The notes below the pieces were generated by a model. The model worked only from the letters and a program-made list of their open reading frames with translations, did no database searches and had not been told where the DNA came from. From a virus, in the UHGV virus genome UHGV-2170436: a DNA stretch of 35,580 bases; one strand, 5' to 3'. Positions 1,452 through 35,580 of this stretch are shown here, one piece after another. A program made the position numbers and the translations under genes. How positions within the stretch are numbered: the first letter of the stretch is position 1; the number at the start of each line of letters is the position of its first letter.

Positions 1452-1487
1452 GCCCCTATCGTTATAATACGCGGTAGGGGCGTTTTT
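1452..1487 (+). terminator. Rho-independent terminator candidate
   Basis: Stem gcccct/aggggc with 18-nt loop followed by gtttttgttt, directly after the 1024..1437 gene. Confidence 0.5.
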
Positions 1488-1500
1488 GTTTGGAAATGGT

Positions 1501-3180
1501 ATGAAAACTAAACTGTATTCGTATATTCGCTTCTCGTCTATGCGTCAGAATGATGGTTCGAGTTATGAACGACAAATCAGGATGGCTAGAGAGATTGCGG
1601 TAAAGTATGACCTTGAACTGGTAAATGATTATCAGGATCTGGGTGTATCTGCGTTTAAGGGTGCTAACTCCAAAACAGGGGCGCTATCTCGTTTCCTTGA
1701 TGCAATAGGTAGATCCGTTCCTGTTGGTAGCTGGCTATTCATCGAAAACTTGGACCGTTTATCCCGTGCCGATATTGTCAGTGCGCAGGAGTTATTCCTT
1801 TCAATCATCCGTAGGGGGATAACCATTGTTACTGGCATGGATAACAAGATCTACTCGCTGGATACTGTTACCGCTAACCCGATGGACCTGATGTTCTCCA
1901 TCCTTTTATTCATCCGTGGTAATGAGGAAAGCCAGACTAAGCGCAATCGTACTAACTCAAGCGCACTGATTAAGATTAAAGCTCATCAAGAAAATCCACA
2001 AAATCCGGCTGTTGCAATCGAGGAAATTGGAAAGAATATGTGGTGGACTGATACCACATCTGGTTATGTGCTTCCTCATCCGGTCTTCTTCCCTATTGTT
2101 CAGGAAGTTGTGGAATTACGCAGGAATGGACGGTCAACCGCCGAGATACTGGATCACCTTAACGCGACATACACACCACCACCAGCCGCAAGTCACAAGA
2201 GGCATTCAAACTGGTCACGGGCAATGATTGAAAGGTTGTTCCATACCCGCGCTTTGATTGGTATCAAGGAAATCTCTGTAGATGGCGTTAAGTATGAGTT
2301 AAAGGATTATTATCCTCGTGTGCTAGATGACGCTGAGTTTTATCACCTTAAGAAAAGCATTGGTGTTAGAGCATGTAACTTTGGAGACAAAGAAGAAGTT
2401 AAACCTATTCCCTTGCTTAGTGGTGTTGGTCTATTGAAATGTGAACATTGCGGTTCCGCTATGGTTAAGGTGAAAGGAACAAACAGACGGCCTAACCAAT
2501 ATCGTTATTCATGCGATGCAATGCGCTCTAGTCGTATTGAATGTGTGCATACAAACTGGAGTTTTCGCGGCGACCAATTAGAGAAAGCTGTATTGCAATT
2601 GCTGGCTGATAAAATCTGGATTGCTGAAGATAAGGCTAATCCGGTTCCGGCTTTGAAAGTACAGATTGATGAAATATCACGCAAGATTGATAACCTGATT
2701 ACCCTTTCTGCTATGACAGGAGCAACGAAGGAGCTAGCCGATCAGATTACTACCCTCAATAGCGAGCGTGAAACACTCTACAATCAAATTAAGATGGCAG
2801 AAGAGGAAATGTATTCTGTTGACTCTCAAGGCTGGGAGAAGCTCGCAGAATTTGATTTAGAAGATGTTTACAACGAGGATCGCATTAAGGTCCGGTTTAA
2901 GATTAAGCAAGCTCTAAAACGGATCGGGTGTAGCAGGATTGACAAGTACAAAAACTTGTTTGTACTGGAATACATCGATGGCAAGACCCAGAGAGTTGTA
3001 ATAGAAAATTCAAGAGGACCGAGGAAAGGCCGGATCTTCGTTGATTTGAAGACTATCAATGATAGGCAGATTCTGGAGAGTAACGGGCTTGTTCTGCATC
3101 CATGTTTAGACATGCTGACAGATAAGAACTGGAAACCAGAAGAAGAAATACCAGGTCCATTACAAGAATTTGGAATTTAA
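1501..3180 (+). CDS. large serine recombinase (putative integrase)
   Basis: N-terminal resolvase catalytic motifs (YIRFSSMRQ with nucleophile Ser; ENLDRLSR), central recombinase domain, Cys-rich zinc ribbon (CEHCGS...YSCDAMRSSRIECVH) and coiled coil. ORF track starts at 1486; Met at 1501 gives the canonical MK..Y.R.S N-terminus. Confidence 0.9.
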   Translation: MKTKLYSYIRFSSMRQNDGSSYERQIRMAREIAVKYDLELVNDYQDLGVSAFKGANSKTGALSRFLDAIGRSVPVGSWLFIENLDRLSRADIVSAQELFLSIIRRGITIVTGMDNKIYSLDTVTANPMDLMFSILLFIRGNEESQTKRNRTNSSALIKIKAHQENPQNPAVAIEEIGKNMWWTDTTSGYVLPHPVFFPIVQEVVELRRNGRSTAEILDHLNATYTPPPAASHKRHSNWSRAMIERLFHTRALIGIKEISVDGVKYELKDYYPRVLDDAEFYHLKKSIGVRACNFGDKEEVKPIPLLSGVGLLKCEHCGSAMVKVKGTNRRPNQYRYSCDAMRSSRIECVHTNWSFRGDQLEKAVLQLLADKIWIAEDKANPVPALKVQIDEISRKIDNLITLSAMTGATKELADQITTLNSERETLYNQIKMAEEEMYSVDSQGWEKLAEFDLEDVYNEDRIKVRFKIKQALKRIGCSRIDKYKNLFVLEYIDGKTQRVVIENSRGPRKGRIFVDLKTINDRQILESNGLVLHPCLDMLTDKNWKPEEEIPGPLQEFGI

Positions 3181-27207: not shown

Positions 27208-27801
27208 ATGCTAATTAATCAGCAAGAAAGAGATGAATTAGCCTTGTCTTGTACCGATCATGAATATCGTTTGCCAGTAAAACATAAGCACTTAAAGACC
27301 GATTACACTACATCCGGTTTTAGTCGCGAAGAAGCGAAAGAGATTTTAATCGAGTTGTATCGCGATCATGGGTATACCGATATTCACAACTTCTTTAAGA
27401 AGCATAGAACATCACATACAGAGTTTCGGAGAGTCCGAGATTGGTTTGATTTTGATATCAAGCGTTATTATCGCATTGATGACGGTCCTATCTATCGGTT
27501 GCAGTGGAAGTCGATCCGAGAAGTGTTGAAACAGAAGAGATTGAATCACGCTATTACACGCTATCGTAACGAGGCTTTCAAGAAAGGCTATGGTGATACA
27601 AGGGAACTATTCGTTGAACTCGCTAACGTGAAGTACAGCCACTATTACAACGATCCTAAATCCTTCTTTGAAGTGCTTCGCAAGGTTGATATAAGTCGGG
27701 GTACATACTATTCACGGTTGAAGAAGTACGGGATTAAGGCAGAGTTCTTTATGTCGGTTGACGATGGAGAACTTTTTCCGATAAAATGTAAGTCACTCTA
27801 A
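27208..27801 (+). CDS. DNA-binding protein with duplicated resolvase-type HTH-like modules
   Basis: Two internal segments ending in a recognition-helix-like motif (ISRGTYYSRLKKYGIK), paralogous to 27834..28067 and 31103..31285; AAGGAGGG RBS. Confidence 0.45.
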   Translation: MLINQQERDELALSCTDHEYRLPVKHKHLKTDYTTSGFSREEAKEILIELYRDHGYTDIHNFFKKHRTSHTEFRRVRDWFDFDIKRYYRIDDGPIYRLQWKSIREVLKQKRLNHAITRYRNEAFKKGYGDTRELFVELANVKYSHYYNDPKSFFEVLRKVDISRGTYYSRLKKYGIKAEFFMSVDDGELFPIKCKSL

Positions 27802-27833: not shown

Positions 27834-28067
27834 ATGACTATGACTACTAAAGCTACTCGCGGTCGTCCTGCCCGTTTTAACGCTGAACAAATGGCTGATA
27901 TTGCCTACGCTTATTATACAGCGGATCGTGGTAAGGAAGCGAAAGAACAGATTCTTAGTGAACATGGGATTTCAATTGCCCAATTCTATAAGAATATGAA
28001 GAAGTTAGACATTAAATTCTATGTTCAGATCGGTGATGGTCAGATCGTAGAAGCAACAGGTTTTTGA
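27834..28067 (+). CDS. small HTH DNA-binding protein (excisionase/RDF or regulator candidate)
   Basis: TRGRPARF...GISIAQFYKNMKKLDIK resembles resolvase-type HTH; 77 aa. Confidence 0.45.
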   Translation: MTMTTKATRGRPARFNAEQMADIAYAYYTADRGKEAKEQILSEHGISIAQFYKNMKKLDIKFYVQIGDGQIVEATGF

Positions 28068-29392: not shown

Positions 29393-29860
29393 TTACAGCA
29401 TATCTAAGCCTTCGTCGTAACCGTAGAAGCCATTCTGAGAAGAAAAACAGATTGGTGCGTAGTCGTCGTCATCTTCGTCTTGTTCATCTTCTTCTGGGGC
29501 TTCCTGAGCGGTTTCTTTGCCGTAGTTAAACATTGCTTCATCCAGTTCATAGACAGTAACGAAGCTACCCAGGTCAATGTCACCGGAACGGACTTCAAAC
29601 GGAAGATCATCACGAACAATAATTGCTGGTAGATCCTGGTACTTTAAGCGTTCTTCATCGGTGAAGACGTTAACAACAATGGTCGGCTTCTTATTACGGT
29701 AAAACGCATACCATGCACTAGAGAAATGGGATTCATCAGAGTTGAAAAGGATGTTATAACCACGTTCACGGAACATCTTCATTAACTTGTCATTGTGGAA
29801 GCTATCAGAATCCAGACCCAGAAGGATAAAAGGAGTAGTGGTAGTCATCTTGTGGTTCAT
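29393..29860 (-). CDS. hypothetical protein with strongly acidic C-terminal tail
   Basis: ...EAPEEDEQDEDDDDYAPICF; transcribed divergently from the early control region. Confidence 0.45.
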   Translation of the reverse strand: MNHKMTTTTPFILLGLDSDSFHNDKLMKMFRERGYNILFNSDESHFSSAWYAFYRNKKPTIVVNVFTDEERLKYQDLPAIIVRDDLPFEVRSGDIDLGSFVTVYELDEAMFNYGKETAQEAPEEDEQDEDDDDYAPICFSSQNGFYGYDEGLDML

Positions 29861-30060
29861 AGTGGAAATTCTCTAAAAGAAAGTGAATCAATCTAATATT
29901 ATTTATAAAGAGAAAATTCTTGTTATTATGAAAGGTGATTGTATTCAGTCGGGCAAAGCCCTCCTTCATAGATTTTGAATAAATCATCATCAAAACGAAG
30001 AAGTATCTTTAGAATATAAGAATCTTTCTTTTGGAGAAATAATAATCAGGAAGCAATTTG

Positions 30061-30089
30061 GCAACCGAAGGTTGCAATCCCGAAGGGAT
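30061..30089 (+). repeat. Two adjacent GAA-triloop hairpins
   Basis: gcaacc-gaa-ggttgc (30061-30075) and atccc-gaa-gggat (30077-30089). Confidence 0.4.
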
Positions 30090-30436
30090 AACCAATACCT
30101 TTCTAGAAAGTGATTGTTACTCACTTCGTTCGTTTACTAGAATCAGTTAGTAACTAGTATTAAATCCCTTTCTGAGAAAATCCTTTCAAAAGCGAGTGAA
30201 CGCCGTAGGTGTGAACGTGAGCGAAGCGAACTATCCAATCCCTTTCGAATCCTGCTTGCAGGTCTTAGAAGGTGTTGATGGGCGCTTCGCGCACGGCTAC
30301 GCCGTATTCTTTTTGCGAGATCTTTCTTGAACGTAGTGAGAGAAAACGAGCAAAAAGGAGAACGTTAGTTCGAATTTTATATTCTATGGTCTGTGTGGTG
30401 AAATGTCTTTCAAGATCATACACTTATGAGATTGAA

Positions 30437-30534
30437 GTGTAGGGTTAGTGTAGGTGTGTAGGTGTTATAGTGTAGGTTTACTGGCTAGTGTAGTGTAGGC
30501 CAATCCCTTTAAAGCGTAGGTTTGTAGTGTAGGT
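30437..30534 (+). repeat. Iteron-like direct repeat array (GTGTAGG core, at least 6 exact copies plus variants)
   Basis: GTGTAGG at 30437, 30448, 30456, 30470, 30493, 30527; variants at 30488 and 30514; four copies of the 10-mer TAGTGTAGGT spaced about 22-34 bp apart. Confidence 0.7.
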
Positions 30535-30730
30535 TTTTCATCAAAAATTTTGATAGAAAATTCTTGTATATTATTTAACCAGAAAATCACCAAAAACCGC
30601 TGTAAATGCATGATTTAAAAAGAATCATCAAAAGGTCGCCGTGCTATAATAGGTTATAAAGGTTGATAATCGTTATCCGCCATTTTCACACAAAAATTTT
30701 GATAGTCATTTCTCGCTTAGATCAAGTGTA

Positions 30731-30759
30731 TTGACAACTGTCAAGGATTATTTTATACT
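30731..30759 (+). promoter_or_regulatory. Near-consensus sigma70 promoter (TTGACA - 17 bp - TATACT) with operator-like palindrome
   Basis: TTGACA 30731-30736, 17-nt spacer, TATACT 30754-30759; -35 is part of the near-palindrome TTGACAACTGTCAA. Confidence 0.65.
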
Positions 30760-31102
30760 TTTTCTCGTTGGTAGGGGTTGAAATTTTCGAAACAATCCAC
30801 ATATTGATGATACGCAAGATTTTTTCGTGTATAAATACATGCATGAAAATGATTGTTCACTTCTGAAAATCCCCTGATTCACTGTTAATTCATACAGCAC
30901 TGGCTAAACATACAGTGCTTATTCGATTGAATAATGTACGAATTGATTAATTATTAATCTTCTCTTTAGCAATTCGTGCTCCCACTGATCGGATATACAG
31001 TGGTTTTACAGGGTTTTTCGAAAAACATTTTATAAATAGAATTGTTCAGAGCGAAAAGCTCTTTTTTAAGAAATCATTATTCCAGATTTAGGAGGATATA
31101 AG

Positions 31103-31285
31103 ATGGCACGACCTGTTAAGTTCACTCGTGAAATCGTTTTAGAAATGGCAAAGCGTTATTTTGAACTGACACCTGATGTAGTGATGGGTGAATGGTTTAA
31201 AGGTGAAGGTATTGATCAATCAACCTTCCACAAACTCTTAAAGAAGTATGACATTAAAGTAAAGATTACCGCCGAGGTCTGGTAA
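31103..31285 (+). CDS. small HTH DNA-binding protein (paralog of 27834..28067)
   Basis: MARPVKFTREIV...GIDQSTFHKLLKKYDIK; GGAGG RBS. Confidence 0.5.
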   Translation: MARPVKFTREIVLEMAKRYFELTPDVVMGEWFKGEGIDQSTFHKLLKKYDIKVKITAEVW

Positions 31286-31401: not shown

Positions 31402-32397
31402 ATGAAAAATTCTAAGCGCATTACCTTCAACATGTTTATTAAATCCAACGGCAAACTGAACATCACTGTCATGGAAGGTAAAGCAAGCAAACAAGACAAA
31501 TCCTTTGAAGTAGTATCAGGTAAGACTCTGACCGAAATGCGTCAAAATGCTGGCATCAAAGACGGTGCTGAATGGCAGATCACCAACCGTTTCGACAAAC
31601 GTCACGTTAAACCTACACTGGTAGAAGGTGAATCCGTTTATTGCTTCGCTCGTGCTGTTAAAGCTGATGAAACTTACTATCTGGCTGTTGTTAAAACGGC
31701 TTCCGGCTTCCGTGCTGTAATGCATCACAAGAGCAAACGTAACGAATACGGCGTAGAGACCCAGGAAGTCGCAAAACGCTTCCGTACTGTTGCTACCGAA
31801 TCCACTGTAAAGGATGTTTCTGGTACTGTTAACACCGCTAAAGGCGGTTCCTTCTACAACCACGCATTACAGGTTACTTCCTCCTTCTTCTGCAAAAAAG
31901 AAGCACAGAAAGAAGTTTCTCCGGTAGTAGTTGAAGAAGTTAAAGAAGAAGTTGCAGTGGTTGAATATTCCGAAGTTGAAGCACTGAAAGCACGCATCGC
32001 TGAACTGGAAGCTGAAAACGCATCTCTGAAAGCTGAACTGGCAGCACAGGAAACCACTTTCGAAGTAGCAGCGGTTGAAGTTGAAGCAGTTGAAGAAAAA
32101 TCCATTGATGAAGAACTGGAAGAACTCCTTAACTATCGCTGGGGTGTTGTTGCAGAAGTAGAACAAGAAGTTGCTCCGGTAGTTGTTCCGGTTGAAGTTG
32201 AAGAAGAATCCGCACCTGTTACTAACTTTGAATCCCTGCGCAATAACTTTATGGCTAAATTCAAAACCACTTGGGAAGATACCGAAGAAGAACAAGAAGA
32301 GATTGAAGTAAACGAAGACGAGATCCGCGAAGCACAGATGGCACTGCATGACGCTATCTACGACACCAACTACAGCGCCTACGCATACGCAGCTTAA
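31402..32397 (+). CDS. hypothetical early protein with acidic, Val/Glu-rich coiled-coil C-terminal half
   Basis: AGGAG RBS; 331 aa; no motif recognised. Confidence 0.45.
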   Translation: MKNSKRITFNMFIKSNGKLNITVMEGKASKQDKSFEVVSGKTLTEMRQNAGIKDGAEWQITNRFDKRHVKPTLVEGESVYCFARAVKADETYYLAVVKTASGFRAVMHHKSKRNEYGVETQEVAKRFRTVATESTVKDVSGTVNTAKGGSFYNHALQVTSSFFCKKEAQKEVSPVVVEEVKEEVAVVEYSEVEALKARIAELEAENASLKAELAAQETTFEVAAVEVEAVEEKSIDEELEELLNYRWGVVAEVEQEVAPVVVPVEVEEESAPVTNFESLRNNFMAKFKTTWEDTEEEQEEIEVNEDEIREAQMALHDAIYDTNYSAYAYAA

Positions 32398-32412
32398 TAG
32401 AGAGGTGAATTT

Positions 32413-32655
32413 ATGATGAATCAAAACAAAGAATTTCTGGGTAATCTGATGTTAGAAATTACCAAAATGAAAGAAAGAATGGTAGCGATGGAATCAGAGA
32501 TTAAAACACTTAAAGCTGATAATAAGGCGTTGAGAAAGTCCTTAAAGCTGATTGATGAGACTAATGCGGTTATGATGGATCATGTATTCCCTGAGTGGCG
32601 AAATGAAACTAAACCTACACAACATAAGAAACTTACACTTCGAATTGTTGCATAA
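32413..32655 (+). CDS. hypothetical coiled-coil protein
   Basis: GAGGTGA RBS; 80 aa. Confidence 0.4.
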   Translation: MMNQNKEFLGNLMLEITKMKERMVAMESEIKTLKADNKALRKSLKLIDETNAVMMDHVFPEWRNETKPTQHKKLTLRIVA

Positions 32656-34263: not shown

Positions 34264-35058
34264 ATGAAAAACATTATCGCTGCTATCGTGCTTTCTGCTA
34301 CTGCTTTCGGTGCTGATGCTGCGTCCTTTGATTGCACTAAGGCTACTACCAAATCAGAGAAGTTTATTTGTGCTAATGAGTCAATCTCCGCACTGGATTC
34401 TAAACTTCATGAAGTATATGTTAAGGCTGTTAAGATTGACCCGTCGCTTAAACAAGAGCAACGCAACTGGAATAAAACTGTTCGTGATACAATGATCAAT
34501 ATCGGGCAGATTCAGCCACTGGAGGCTGTATACAACGCTCAAATCCAAAACTTGATGAACGTATTATCTAAAGAAGAAACCGCGTCAGAAAGCGATTCAG
34601 AGACTTCTGCGAAGGTTGAAGAAGAACAACCGAAGGCAGTAGAAACTCTAAAAACCAAAGAGAAACAAGTTGTTCTGGAAAAGTCCCCAAATAGCAACTT
34701 CGTATATATTTGTCCGAAAGTAGTTAAAATAACCACAATTGACGGACTGAGTGTAGAAGATCGTGATATAGTGAAAGAAAACACAAAAATTGTAATCGAT
34801 AAAAACAAAGACAAGGCAAAACTTCTAATTTCTGGAACGATGCACCCCCCAGTTGTAGTGGAAATGAATATTGACGCTGATGGATTCATGTCAAAAACTA
34901 CTAAAACTGGTGTAGAGTTATACGCACAACACGGAAAAACATATTCCGGTGATAAGATGGTTGATGATGTAAGAACACTGGACTATCATCATATTTATGT
35001 TGACAACCGTACCGGAAAGGAAATCGAATGGAAATATTCTTGTGTAGAGAAAAAATGA
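34264..35058 (+). CDS. secreted DUF1311 (LprI-like N-terminal domain) protein, phage moron candidate
   Basis: Signal peptide MKNIIAAIVLSATAFGADA; motif FDCTKATTKSEKFICANESISALDSKL..Y matches the DUF1311 Cys-x-Ala...Glu...Cys...Leu-Asp pattern. Confidence 0.55.
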   Translation: MKNIIAAIVLSATAFGADAASFDCTKATTKSEKFICANESISALDSKLHEVYVKAVKIDPSLKQEQRNWNKTVRDTMINIGQIQPLEAVYNAQIQNLMNVLSKEETASESDSETSAKVEEEQPKAVETLKTKEKQVVLEKSPNSNFVYICPKVVKITTIDGLSVEDRDIVKENTKIVIDKNKDKAKLLISGTMHPPVVVEMNIDADGFMSKTTKTGVELYAQHGKTYSGDKMVDDVRTLDYHHIYVDNRTGKEIEWKYSCVEKK

Positions 35059-35256
35059 TAGAGGCGACATAATACAATCAGAGATAGTTAAACGCCCGAA
35101 TATTACTAGTTAGTTCCTAAGTTCATTTCTTATGGTGTTAATTGCGACTCAGTTGCTATAGAATTCTTCTAATTCATTGATTCTATAGCCCTGTCCTTGT
35201 GATGGGGCTTTTTATTGCAAAATTTTTAGTTATTTTGGGTTGACTACATTCGGGTT

Positions 35257-35559
35257 GCCAATTCGCCTGGCTAACTCTTGCTGAGTGATTTCTGACTGTA
35301 AAAAAGCATTTAACAGCAATACCTTAGAGGCGACGCTCAAAGGTACTTCAATAAAGTGATCATGACTATTTAATGGCGAAGGTAACGGGATAAGCTCGTT
35401 ATCTTCAAAATAAAAATCAAATGCGGTCAGTAAAGCATCTTTTGCCGCTTCCATCGCTTCAGCGACAGTTTCGCCCTGCGTCAACGCTTCAGGGATATCC
35501 ACAAAAGAAACCATATAACCGCCTTCCGGCGCGGGTGTAAGAGTGACGGGATAACGCAT
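35257..35559 (-). pseudogene. hicB: hicB antitoxin gene, 3'-truncated (HTH domain lost)
   Basis: MRYPVTLTPAPEGGYMVSFVDIPEALTQGETVAEAMEAAKDAL fits the HicB N-terminal signature; the HTH begins at ...ITQQELARRIG and is replaced by NPNVVNPK-stop encoded by AT-rich DNA. Confidence 0.65.
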
Positions 35560-35580
35560 AATTTCGACTGTCTCTCGCAT

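Follow-up and report, generated by a model that had tools for sequence, protein, structure and literature searches.

Small structured regulatory RNAs adjoin phage and plasmid replication origins, with the OOP RNA of lambda, CopA of R1, and RNA I of ColE1 and ColE2 as familiar examples, and antisense RNAs such as CopA and Sok are usually built from a long imperfect hairpin joined to a terminator. For priming on single-stranded DNA, the G-site of plasmid R1 is the third of three comparable cases. In the other two, minihairpins are found at the complementary-strand origin of phage G4 (oric; GCGAAAGC) and in ssiA of RSF1010 (CCGAAGG), and a further one, GCGGAGC, occurs in the promoters of phage N4 (PMC13037366). 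Here we describe a hairpin element in an Escherichia coli prophage with no described counterpart, represented by the 35,580-nt virus genome UHGV-2170436 (the whole of which we call the window), that lies outside all catalogued RNA families and, judging from sequence comparison, probably belongs to the replication-control region of the phage as a small structured RNA or attenuator. The element, three successive + strand hairpins named H1, H2 and H3, sits in a non-coding hub (29861-31102, 1.24 kb) between two divergent operons, ORF155-ORF51-Rha leftward and ORF60-ORF331-ORF80 rightward (ORF, open reading frame). An array of short direct repeats (iterons) follows it, and the combined hairpin and iteron block exists in interchangeable types A (that of the window), B and C.

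Like OOP, CopA and RNA I, the element is a short non-coding stem-loop unit that ends in an intrinsic terminator, stands beside an origin/initiator module and is specific to the replicon type. Unlike them, it shows no sequence or Rfam similarity to these RNAs, ORF331 has no similarity to known Rep proteins, and the prophage element lies upstream of the iterons instead of antisense to a rep gene, with an overlapping target that is only putative. In departure from the CopA and RNA I arrangement, ORF331 is encoded on the same strand, 1.1 kb downstream, and the promoter-like sites on the opposite strand (30374-30409) are not conserved. With RSF1010 ssiA and ssiB and G4 oric the element shares minihairpins of the C-GAA-G or GCGAAGC type on opposite strands of an inverted repeat near iterons (PMC13037366), but no RepB′-like primase or RepA-like helicase was recognised, the prophage element has a long wobble-rich helix and a U-run, and the GNA loops (N, any base) that lie near the origin on both strands of type A are lost from the bottom strand in many type-B variants. 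The promoter early stem-loop (PeSL) elements of RB49-like T4-type phages (PMC2839356, PMC4122927) are comparable in that an intergenic element, R, and GC-rich stem-loops recur together; they differ in having polyG/polyC stems where the prophage has short triloop hairpins, the host here is a temperate siphovirus-like prophage, and no + strand sigma-70 consensus promoter is detectable in the RB49 copies of R. Finally, H3 and its U-run in type A have the usual features of a Rho-independent terminator, whereas in types B and C the T-run either stands apart from the stem or is weak, and the preceding 80-nt H2 exceeds what a terminator needs.

Hairpin structure of the element

The original prediction had named two tandem GAA-triloop hairpins (30061-30075 and 30077-30089), the heptamer GCGAAGC (30221-30227) and a long imperfect inverted repeat, and all four features are present. 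For the inverted repeat, the core holds (30216-30228 with 30283-30295; 13 nt, 92% complementary, 54 nt apart), but the outer parts pair imperfectly, and 30201-30215 and 30296-30305 each belong to a small local palindrome, H1 and H3, respectively. H1 occupies 30201-30213 (ACGCC-GTA-GGTGT), with a G-U pair in the window where relatives, reading GGCGT, have G-C. H2 is a long imperfect hairpin (30216-30295) with a base formed by CGTGAGCGAAGCG and CGCTTCGCGCACG that contains the GCGAAGC heptamer, distal arms CTATCCAATCCCTTTCGA and TTAGAAGGTGTTGATGG, and an apex at 30251-30262 (CCTG-CTTG-CAGG). H3 (ACGGC-TAC-GCCGT, 30293-30305) leads directly into the U-run ATTCTTTTTG, which brings the unit to 30315.

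That this hairpin structure exists and exceeds chance is confirmed. The + strand of 30150-30320 folds at -55.9 kcal/mol in RNAfold (z = -3.09; 1 of 200 dinucleotide shuffles equally good), and the - strand reaches z = -1.66. Perfect C-GNA-G triloop hairpins with stems of at least 4 bp number 8 on both strands of the 35.6 kb, and 4 of these fall within the 245 nt of 30061-30305, against 0.087 expected in the 1.24-kb intergenic region (0 of 2000 shuffles gave 4). The promoter and terminator scan added a feature absent from the original prediction, a + strand terminator made of H3 and ATTCTTTTTG, with 4 GC pairs in its 5-bp stem, a loop of 3 nt and at least 5 T in the next 8 nt; this full set of intrinsic-terminator features occurs in the window's type only. 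H3 and ATTCTTTTTG are invariant in 10 of 10 distinct type-A sequences, and in the minimum-energy fold the whole long hairpin closes at 30303, directly 5′ of the U-run. The GC content rises to 0.44-0.47 over 30200-30400, in surrounding DNA of 0.31-0.35. The region is non-coding: the sole ORF crossing it, of 44 amino acids, is frameshifted by a 1-nt deletion in three relatives (L005, L006 and L146), no small conserved ORF of a type I toxin-antitoxin or small-protein locus was found among those crossing 30196-30442, and the type-B sequence is unrelated there.

Three interchangeable module types

For comparison, about 54 related loci were drawn from E. coli genomes (L001-L013), metagenomes (7 true relatives) and prophage contigs of IMG/VR. 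An AT-rich scan pattern gave mainly chance matches, with true relatives at 7 of 87 metagenome loci and 0 genome loci, and a viral-contig scan with GTGAGCGAAGCGANC returned nearly all noise. Across these loci the hub is a mosaic in which the block of hairpins and iterons (30197-30540) takes only three forms; two more viral-contig scans revealed no further type, and no hairpin/iteron recombinants between types were seen in the ~54 loci.

Type A combines H1-H2-H3 with GTGTAGG iterons, of which the window has ~8 direct copies on the + strand (30430-30535). Type B has the same three-hairpin layout of H1, long H2 and H3. Its H1 is CGATGCCAC-GCA-GTGGCGTCG, its H2 base (GTGAGCGAAGCGA and GCGCTTCGCGCA) is identical to that of type A, and its distal arms (CTAGTTAATTCCTTCTA and TAGAAGTAATTGGTTAG) are diverged yet pairing, around a larger apical region; H3 is GGGC-TAC-GCCC or GGGC-AAA-GCCC followed by TCCTAATATCTTTTTGG, and the iterons read CAGGGGCAAAA. 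Type C carries a single hairpin, GCGCCC-CGCA-GGGCGC followed by ATAATATCTTTG, at the equivalent relative position past a shared leader motif, AAATCCCTT, and its iterons are ACGGGGA.

The block changes together with ORF331 (31402-32397, + strand), an ORFan that is the candidate initiator or protein binding the iterons. Across all type-A loci its N-terminal domain (residues 1-170) shows 98-100% identity, and it cannot be detected in types B and C; ORF155, ORF60 and Rha show 54-100% identity in those loci independently of module type. Because the N-terminal domain tracks the type while the flanking genes vary independently, ORF331 is likely the cognate protein of the iterons. An assignment of ORF331 to a known Rep protein was rejected, with no Pfam or PHROG match and no phage tblastn match; its only matches are near-identical E. 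coli and Shigella hypothetical proteins (6 in an exhaustive search), and its AlphaFold model has a predicted local distance difference test score (pLDDT) of 44.7, too poor for a fold search.

The unit that swaps comprises 30197-30540 and 31402-32655 (ORF331/ORF80), which change together in L011-L014, L134, L139, L141 and L145; the intervening 0.9 kb, with promoters and ORF60, is common to the types and recombines freely. On this comparison the hairpin/iteron block and ORF331/ORF80 appear to form a split replication-specificity module. Near the ORF155 promoter, 29945-29964 reads CAGTCGGGCAAAGCCCTCCT, a 20-nt sequence containing GGGC-AAA-GCCC that recurs as H3 in some type-B loci (L014, L134 and L139); it may mark a joint left by recombination or a terminator put to use twice. 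GTGTAGG boxes are found downstream of type-B iterons in L203, L225 and L242, within the promoter TTGACAC-TATGTAGGTTTGG-TGCTATACT, and type C has three TGTAGGT boxes directly past its hairpin, which hints at a GTAGG-binding factor that doubles as a transcriptional regulator.

Conservation of pairing and strand preference

Pairing is conserved across the two diverged types A and B, with the + strand preferred. The original prediction had asked whether pairing would be kept in homologous regions; it is, and the H1-H2-H3 layout recurs in the diverged type B. In the column-consistent part of H2 (11 pairs), 86.8% of cells pair, versus 26-54% after shifting the partner by 1-3 columns. As RNA, the + strand folds 3-11 kcal/mol better than its complement in 11 of 11 distinct H2 variants; with DNA parameters the top-strand advantage shrinks to 0-3 kcal/mol.

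The distal arms of H2 can be aligned between types A and B, and sites that differ mostly keep the pair through wobble, the changes being U-G versus U-A, C-G versus U-G, G-U versus A-U and one U-A versus G-U. Stem polymorphisms within types (30214 C/T, 30276 A/G and a type-B A/G) likewise keep wobble. By hand count over A/B differences and within-type polymorphisms, ~10 convert a Watson-Crick pair to G-U on the + strand and one gives C·A (binomial p ~0.01, under the null that a decaying duplex palindrome yields equal numbers). Other polymorphisms fall at unpaired sites: a deleted bulge C, a G-to-A change in an internal loop, a T gained in the apical loop, a base change at an existing mismatch, and the H3 loop (TAC or AAA).

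Proposed transcript and rival explanations

We favor the reading that the element specifies a short structured + strand RNA or attenuator tied to the replication module, a putative assignment to which we give a probability of about 45%. We infer transcription of the region, its start site and the target of the RNA. The transcript would start somewhere in 29936-30170 and end at ~30315, roughly 115 nt before the iteron array, giving a structured small RNA of ~150-380 nt whose length would be set by the promoter used and whose 5′ part would be C/U-rich and unpaired. Two + strand promoter candidates are available, one of sigma-70 type at 30114-30143 (TTGTTA-18-TAGAAT), of which the portion CTAGAATCA recurs in types A, B and C, and another at 29902-29929 (TTTATA-16-TGtTATTAT); were the latter used, the tandem GAA hairpins would lie inside the transcript. 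A C/U-rich unstructured leader, AAATCCCTTTCTGAGAAAATCCTTTCAAAAG, follows at 30162-30200, and its start, AAATCCCTT, is the sole leader part common to types A, B and C, where it precedes the hairpins; this start may serve as an RNA seed, or it may consist of half-sites of the GAAAGGGATT motif in DNA. The H1-H2-H3 RNA would act in the replication or early-control circuit of its module, either as a regulatory RNA or as an attenuator deciding whether rightward transcription enters the origin. We infer this role because the block is co-inherited with the iterons and the matching ORF331 version. Duplex scans for trans targets of the putative RNA stayed at background level. The window's longest perfect complement to H3 and the terminator (30297-30309) is a 13-nt stretch within ORF331 (GAATACGGCGTAG, 31744-31756), for which ~0.006 matches are expected in the 2.65 kb downstream, from before the rightward promoter to past ORF80; it is conserved in type-A loci, has no type-B counterpart and is possibly due to chance.

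Several results weigh against such an RNA. No two-sided, fully compensatory change occurs among the 11 column-consistent pairs of H2, and the diversity available amounts effectively to two lineages plus a few single-nucleotide polymorphisms. A T-to-A change at 30287, present in about half of the type-A variants and one type-B variant, turns an A-U pair of the H2 base into A·A; only if function depends on the local GCGC-TNC-GCGC hairpin, or on the GNA form of it on the bottom strand, would the change be neutral. The canonical terminator is confined to type A, the type-B U-run lying 9 nt past H3 and the type-C tail being weak, and neither promoter candidate conserves its -35 hexamer or its spacing across module types. 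All top-strand triloops ahead of the H2 distal arms are GNA, a motif best known for stabilizing DNA hairpins (PMC13037366). GAAAG(G/T)GATT, a repeated DNA motif, has the leader's AATCCCTTTC as its reverse, and because the repeated motif is over-represented and forms a palindrome at 30092-30117, conservation of AATCCCTTTC may reflect protein binding on DNA and not an RNA seed. Lastly, Rfam gave 0 matches at gathering score across the whole window; permissive searching of 29800-31200 returned chance-level snoRNA-type matches only (E = 0.9-6), and ARAGORN found no tRNA or tmRNA in the window.

A bolder version of this proposal is that H1-H2-H3 is a type-specific replication RNA (regulator, primer or activator) that co-evolves with the ORFan, iteron-binding initiator ORF331 in a family of E. 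coli prophages not described before, with RNA, iterons and protein matched, and that the R-element toolkit is exchanged with virulent RB49-like phages; taken as a whole, this is speculative and we think it unlikely. If the RNA is real, it would represent a family of phage non-coding RNAs absent from the catalogues, at the control hub of a prophage lineage with only ORFans among its early genes, and the three swappable blocks of hairpins, iterons and ORF331 would be a natural experiment on the exchange of replication-specificity modules. Should the hairpins merely be a terminator, the finding is ordinary; the interest lies in the three-part swappable module and its ORFan context rather than in the hairpins themselves.

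The original prediction, here supported in part, had left the choice between a structured RNA and a DNA unwinding or processing site; pairing, the + strand wobbles and the type-A terminator favor RNA, and the DNA option seems less likely to us. Its strongest form, and the main rival, is that the hairpins are origin signals in single-stranded DNA: once the duplex beside the iterons opens, the left arm on the top strand and the right arm on the bottom strand would each fold into a GTA hairpin and then a GCGAAGC minihairpin, resist single-stranded DNA-binding protein and direct primase. In favor are the strong enrichment of C-GNA-G triloops, the same order of a GTA hairpin and then GCGAAGC on both strands of type A (top 30201-30227, bottom 30305-30284), a distance of 115-370 bp from an iteron array that adjoins an AT-rich stretch, and joint inheritance with the iterons and the type of ORF331. 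The 30287 change would also be explained, as it converts the bottom-strand loop from GAA to GTA, still GNA and hence neutral, and GNA or GNNA minihairpins are reported at G4 oric, RSF1010 ssiA and the N4 promoters (PMC13037366). Yet 4 of 7 distinct type-B variants have an H3 loop of AAA or TAAA, so that the bottom strand reads TTT or TTTA and GNA is lost, and type C offers a single ordinary hairpin, capped by a CGCA loop. The distal H2 helix, with 4-5 G·T wobbles and the slight top-strand advantage already noted for DNA, makes a poor DNA hairpin, the + strand U-run past H3 is left without a role, and no primase or helicase was recognizable among the 22 window proteins compared with Pfam or PHROGs, although with many ORFans among them absence is not proven. 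We regard priming on single strands as rather unlikely.

Transcription punctuation without a functional RNA, in which the hairpins are terminators, insulators or RNA-end stabilizers that shield the iterons from transcription begun at the divergent early promoters or at any internal ones, and resemble the PeSLs of RB49-like phages, accounts directly for the canonical + strand terminator at 30293-30315 and for the fact that every module type has, at the same site, one or more GC hairpins leading into a T-rich tail. PeSL stem-loops were shown to terminate transcription (PMC2839356), and R with tandem hairpins is common to intergenic regions of RB49 and JSE, where the hairpins stand directly 5′ of a gene start and one scored as terminator-like. 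This explanation nevertheless remains doubtful: a simple terminator needs neither an 80-nt imperfect helix with pairing kept through divergence nor an H2 base that stays the same from type A to type B, U-runs are absent from the tandem GAA hairpins on both strands, and the R elements of RB49, with no + strand sigma-70 consensus promoter, do not fit the definition of a PeSL. Were the palindromes instead double-stranded DNA binding sites or cruciforms for a phage or host protein, for example a regulator that binds as a dimer, their two-fold symmetry would produce pairing as a by-product; GAAAG(G/T)GATT is over-represented in both orientations, including inside H2, the H2 base is conserved in sequence beyond pairing between types A and B, and H1 contains iteron-like GTAGG boxes. 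A bias of ~10 G·U to 1 A·C is unexpected, however, where both strands must pair, the H2 arms are unequal in length and bulged, and the distal arms keep complementarity despite ~35% divergence between types, which leaves this view quite improbable. Least credible, and in our judgment highly improbable, is that the + strand RNA regulates, by cis-antisense action, a long ORF155-ORF51-Rha leader made from a - strand promoter near 30374-30409. Promoter-like - strand sequences do occur at 30409-30374 (AAGACA-17-TAGAAT and TTCACC-17-TAAAAT), the architecture recalls CopA and Sok, and the apical loop CUUG fits the YUNR motif, but the -35 hexamers of those sites vary within type A, type B has no equivalent, and a good promoter-like site directly 5′ of ORF155 (29926-29898) makes a 500-nt leader unneeded.

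The repeated motif GAAAG(G/T)GATT occurs 18 times when up to 1 mismatch is allowed (6.9 expected), and 3 of 3 exact matches fall inside 30106-30246. Matches occur in both orientations over 29879-30854, one of them within H2 (30237-30246), and two inverted copies make up an operator-like palindrome at 30092-30117 (AATACCTTTCTAGAAAGTGATT).

The R element and tandem GAA hairpins

Upstream of the H1-H3 element lies R (29965-30050, + strand), an AT-rich imperfect palindrome of 85 nt that is ~80% identical to intergenic repeats of RB49, JSE and ~59 Krischvirus genomes, at 1-2 sites per genome. In a 2.4-kb database it matched the two RB49 copies with expectation values (E) of 2e-13 and 1e-9 and JSE with 2e-12; copies of R were located at L268 603-676 and 752-824 and at L287 501-582. 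A promoter scan found no + strand sigma-70 promoter, the part that defines a PeSL, in the RB49 copies of R or within 29965-30050.

Directly 3′ of R stand the two tandem hairpins, GCAACC-GAA-GGTTGC (30061-30075) and, one base further on, ATCCC-GAA-GGGAT (30077-30089), both on the + strand. The first has a GCA loop in L008 and L009 and is replaced by GACGCTC-CCT-GAGCGTC in some relatives, and TGC-GAA-GCA takes the place of the second in L141, L025 and L066; some prophage relatives thus have another hairpin pair at the same place. Short GC-rich triloop hairpins trail R in every case in Krischvirus too, as CTCC-GTA-GGAG then GCGAAGC, as TCCGC-TAC-GCGGA, or as GTGCC-TCC-GGCAC or GTGCC-TAC-GGCAC then GTCGC-AAA-GCGAC. 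The GAA pair is found with all module types, and the long repeat is specific to the iteron type. The original prediction had treated the hairpins as one cluster; both parts are present, but they are different units, the tandem GAA hairpins belonging with R and not with H1-H3. R and its hairpins look like a shuffled non-coding cassette similar to PeSLs (PMC2839356).

Homology to RB49 at the level of the hairpins themselves is weak (20 of 25 identities, E = 0.15 in the 2.4-kb database) and was not relied on. The idea that the RB49 region with R is syntenic with T4 oriE was rejected, as the 24.3/hoc/uvsW region of T4 holds oriF (uvsY).

Prophage setting and neighboring signals

The 1.24-kb hub is present in 58 of 5426 complete E. 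coli genomes, at chromosomal positions and with 86-96% identity, and a plasmid collection gave zero matches to it. The left end of the window encodes a large serine recombinase (1486-3180), the middle tail, head and terminase genes, and the final ORF carries a HicB domain in the Pfam/PHROGs scan. In strain CE0007a the element adjoins hicA and a truncated hicB. The prophage has apparently integrated in the antitoxin gene hicB of a hicAB locus and left hicB truncated beside an intact hicA (35230-35580 of the window; L001 13489-14019). The literature held nothing relevant on this prophage or on an attachment site in hicB. The large terminase is at most 43% identical to any protein of a sequenced phage, among which the prophage has no close relative, and the early proteins around the hairpins have no Pfam or PHROG match save a Rha-family regulator and the small terminase subunit.

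The 5′ part of an LprI-domain gene (34264-34635) has 95-98% DNA identity to a hypothetical gene of RB49 and other Krischvirus members, which suggests recent exchange between the temperate prophage and virulent T4-type phages; this segment and the cassette of R and hairpins suggest that temperate and virulent coliphages have recently exchanged non-coding DNA. ORF77 (27834-28067) is ~35% identical to an alternative ORF60 allele seen in relatives. By eye, ORF60 (31103-31285), ORF77 and the C-terminus of ORF197 (27208-27801) have in common a helix-turn-helix-like G-I-x-x-x-T/Q-F/Y-x-K-x-x-K-K, and the three may form a small paralogous DNA-binding family with no Pfam or PHROG match.

The octamer TATAAATA, the T4 late-promoter consensus, has 6 of its 7 window copies in the 4-kb early region (29102, 29900, 30830, 31031, 31395 and 33336), several of them 5′ of genes in the correct orientation; the enrichment is marginal, as 3 of 100 shuffles reach 7. 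A 15-nt inverted repeat (29869-29883 and 30024-30038, 93% complementary) could, by pairing in a - strand leader, join the ribosome-binding region of ORF155 to an upstream UUCUCC; its conservation is not clear in relatives with a diverged R element. Past the iterons, three + strand signals are conserved: an extended -10 (TGCTATAAT, 30643-30651), a near-consensus promoter (TTGACA-17-TATACT, 30731-30759) with its -35 within the palindrome TTGACAACTGTCAA, and a terminator-like AGAGC-GAAAA-GCTCT followed by T6 (31048-31068), directly 5′ of the ORF60 ribosome-binding site. Their arrangement suggests regulated read-through into the rightward operon.

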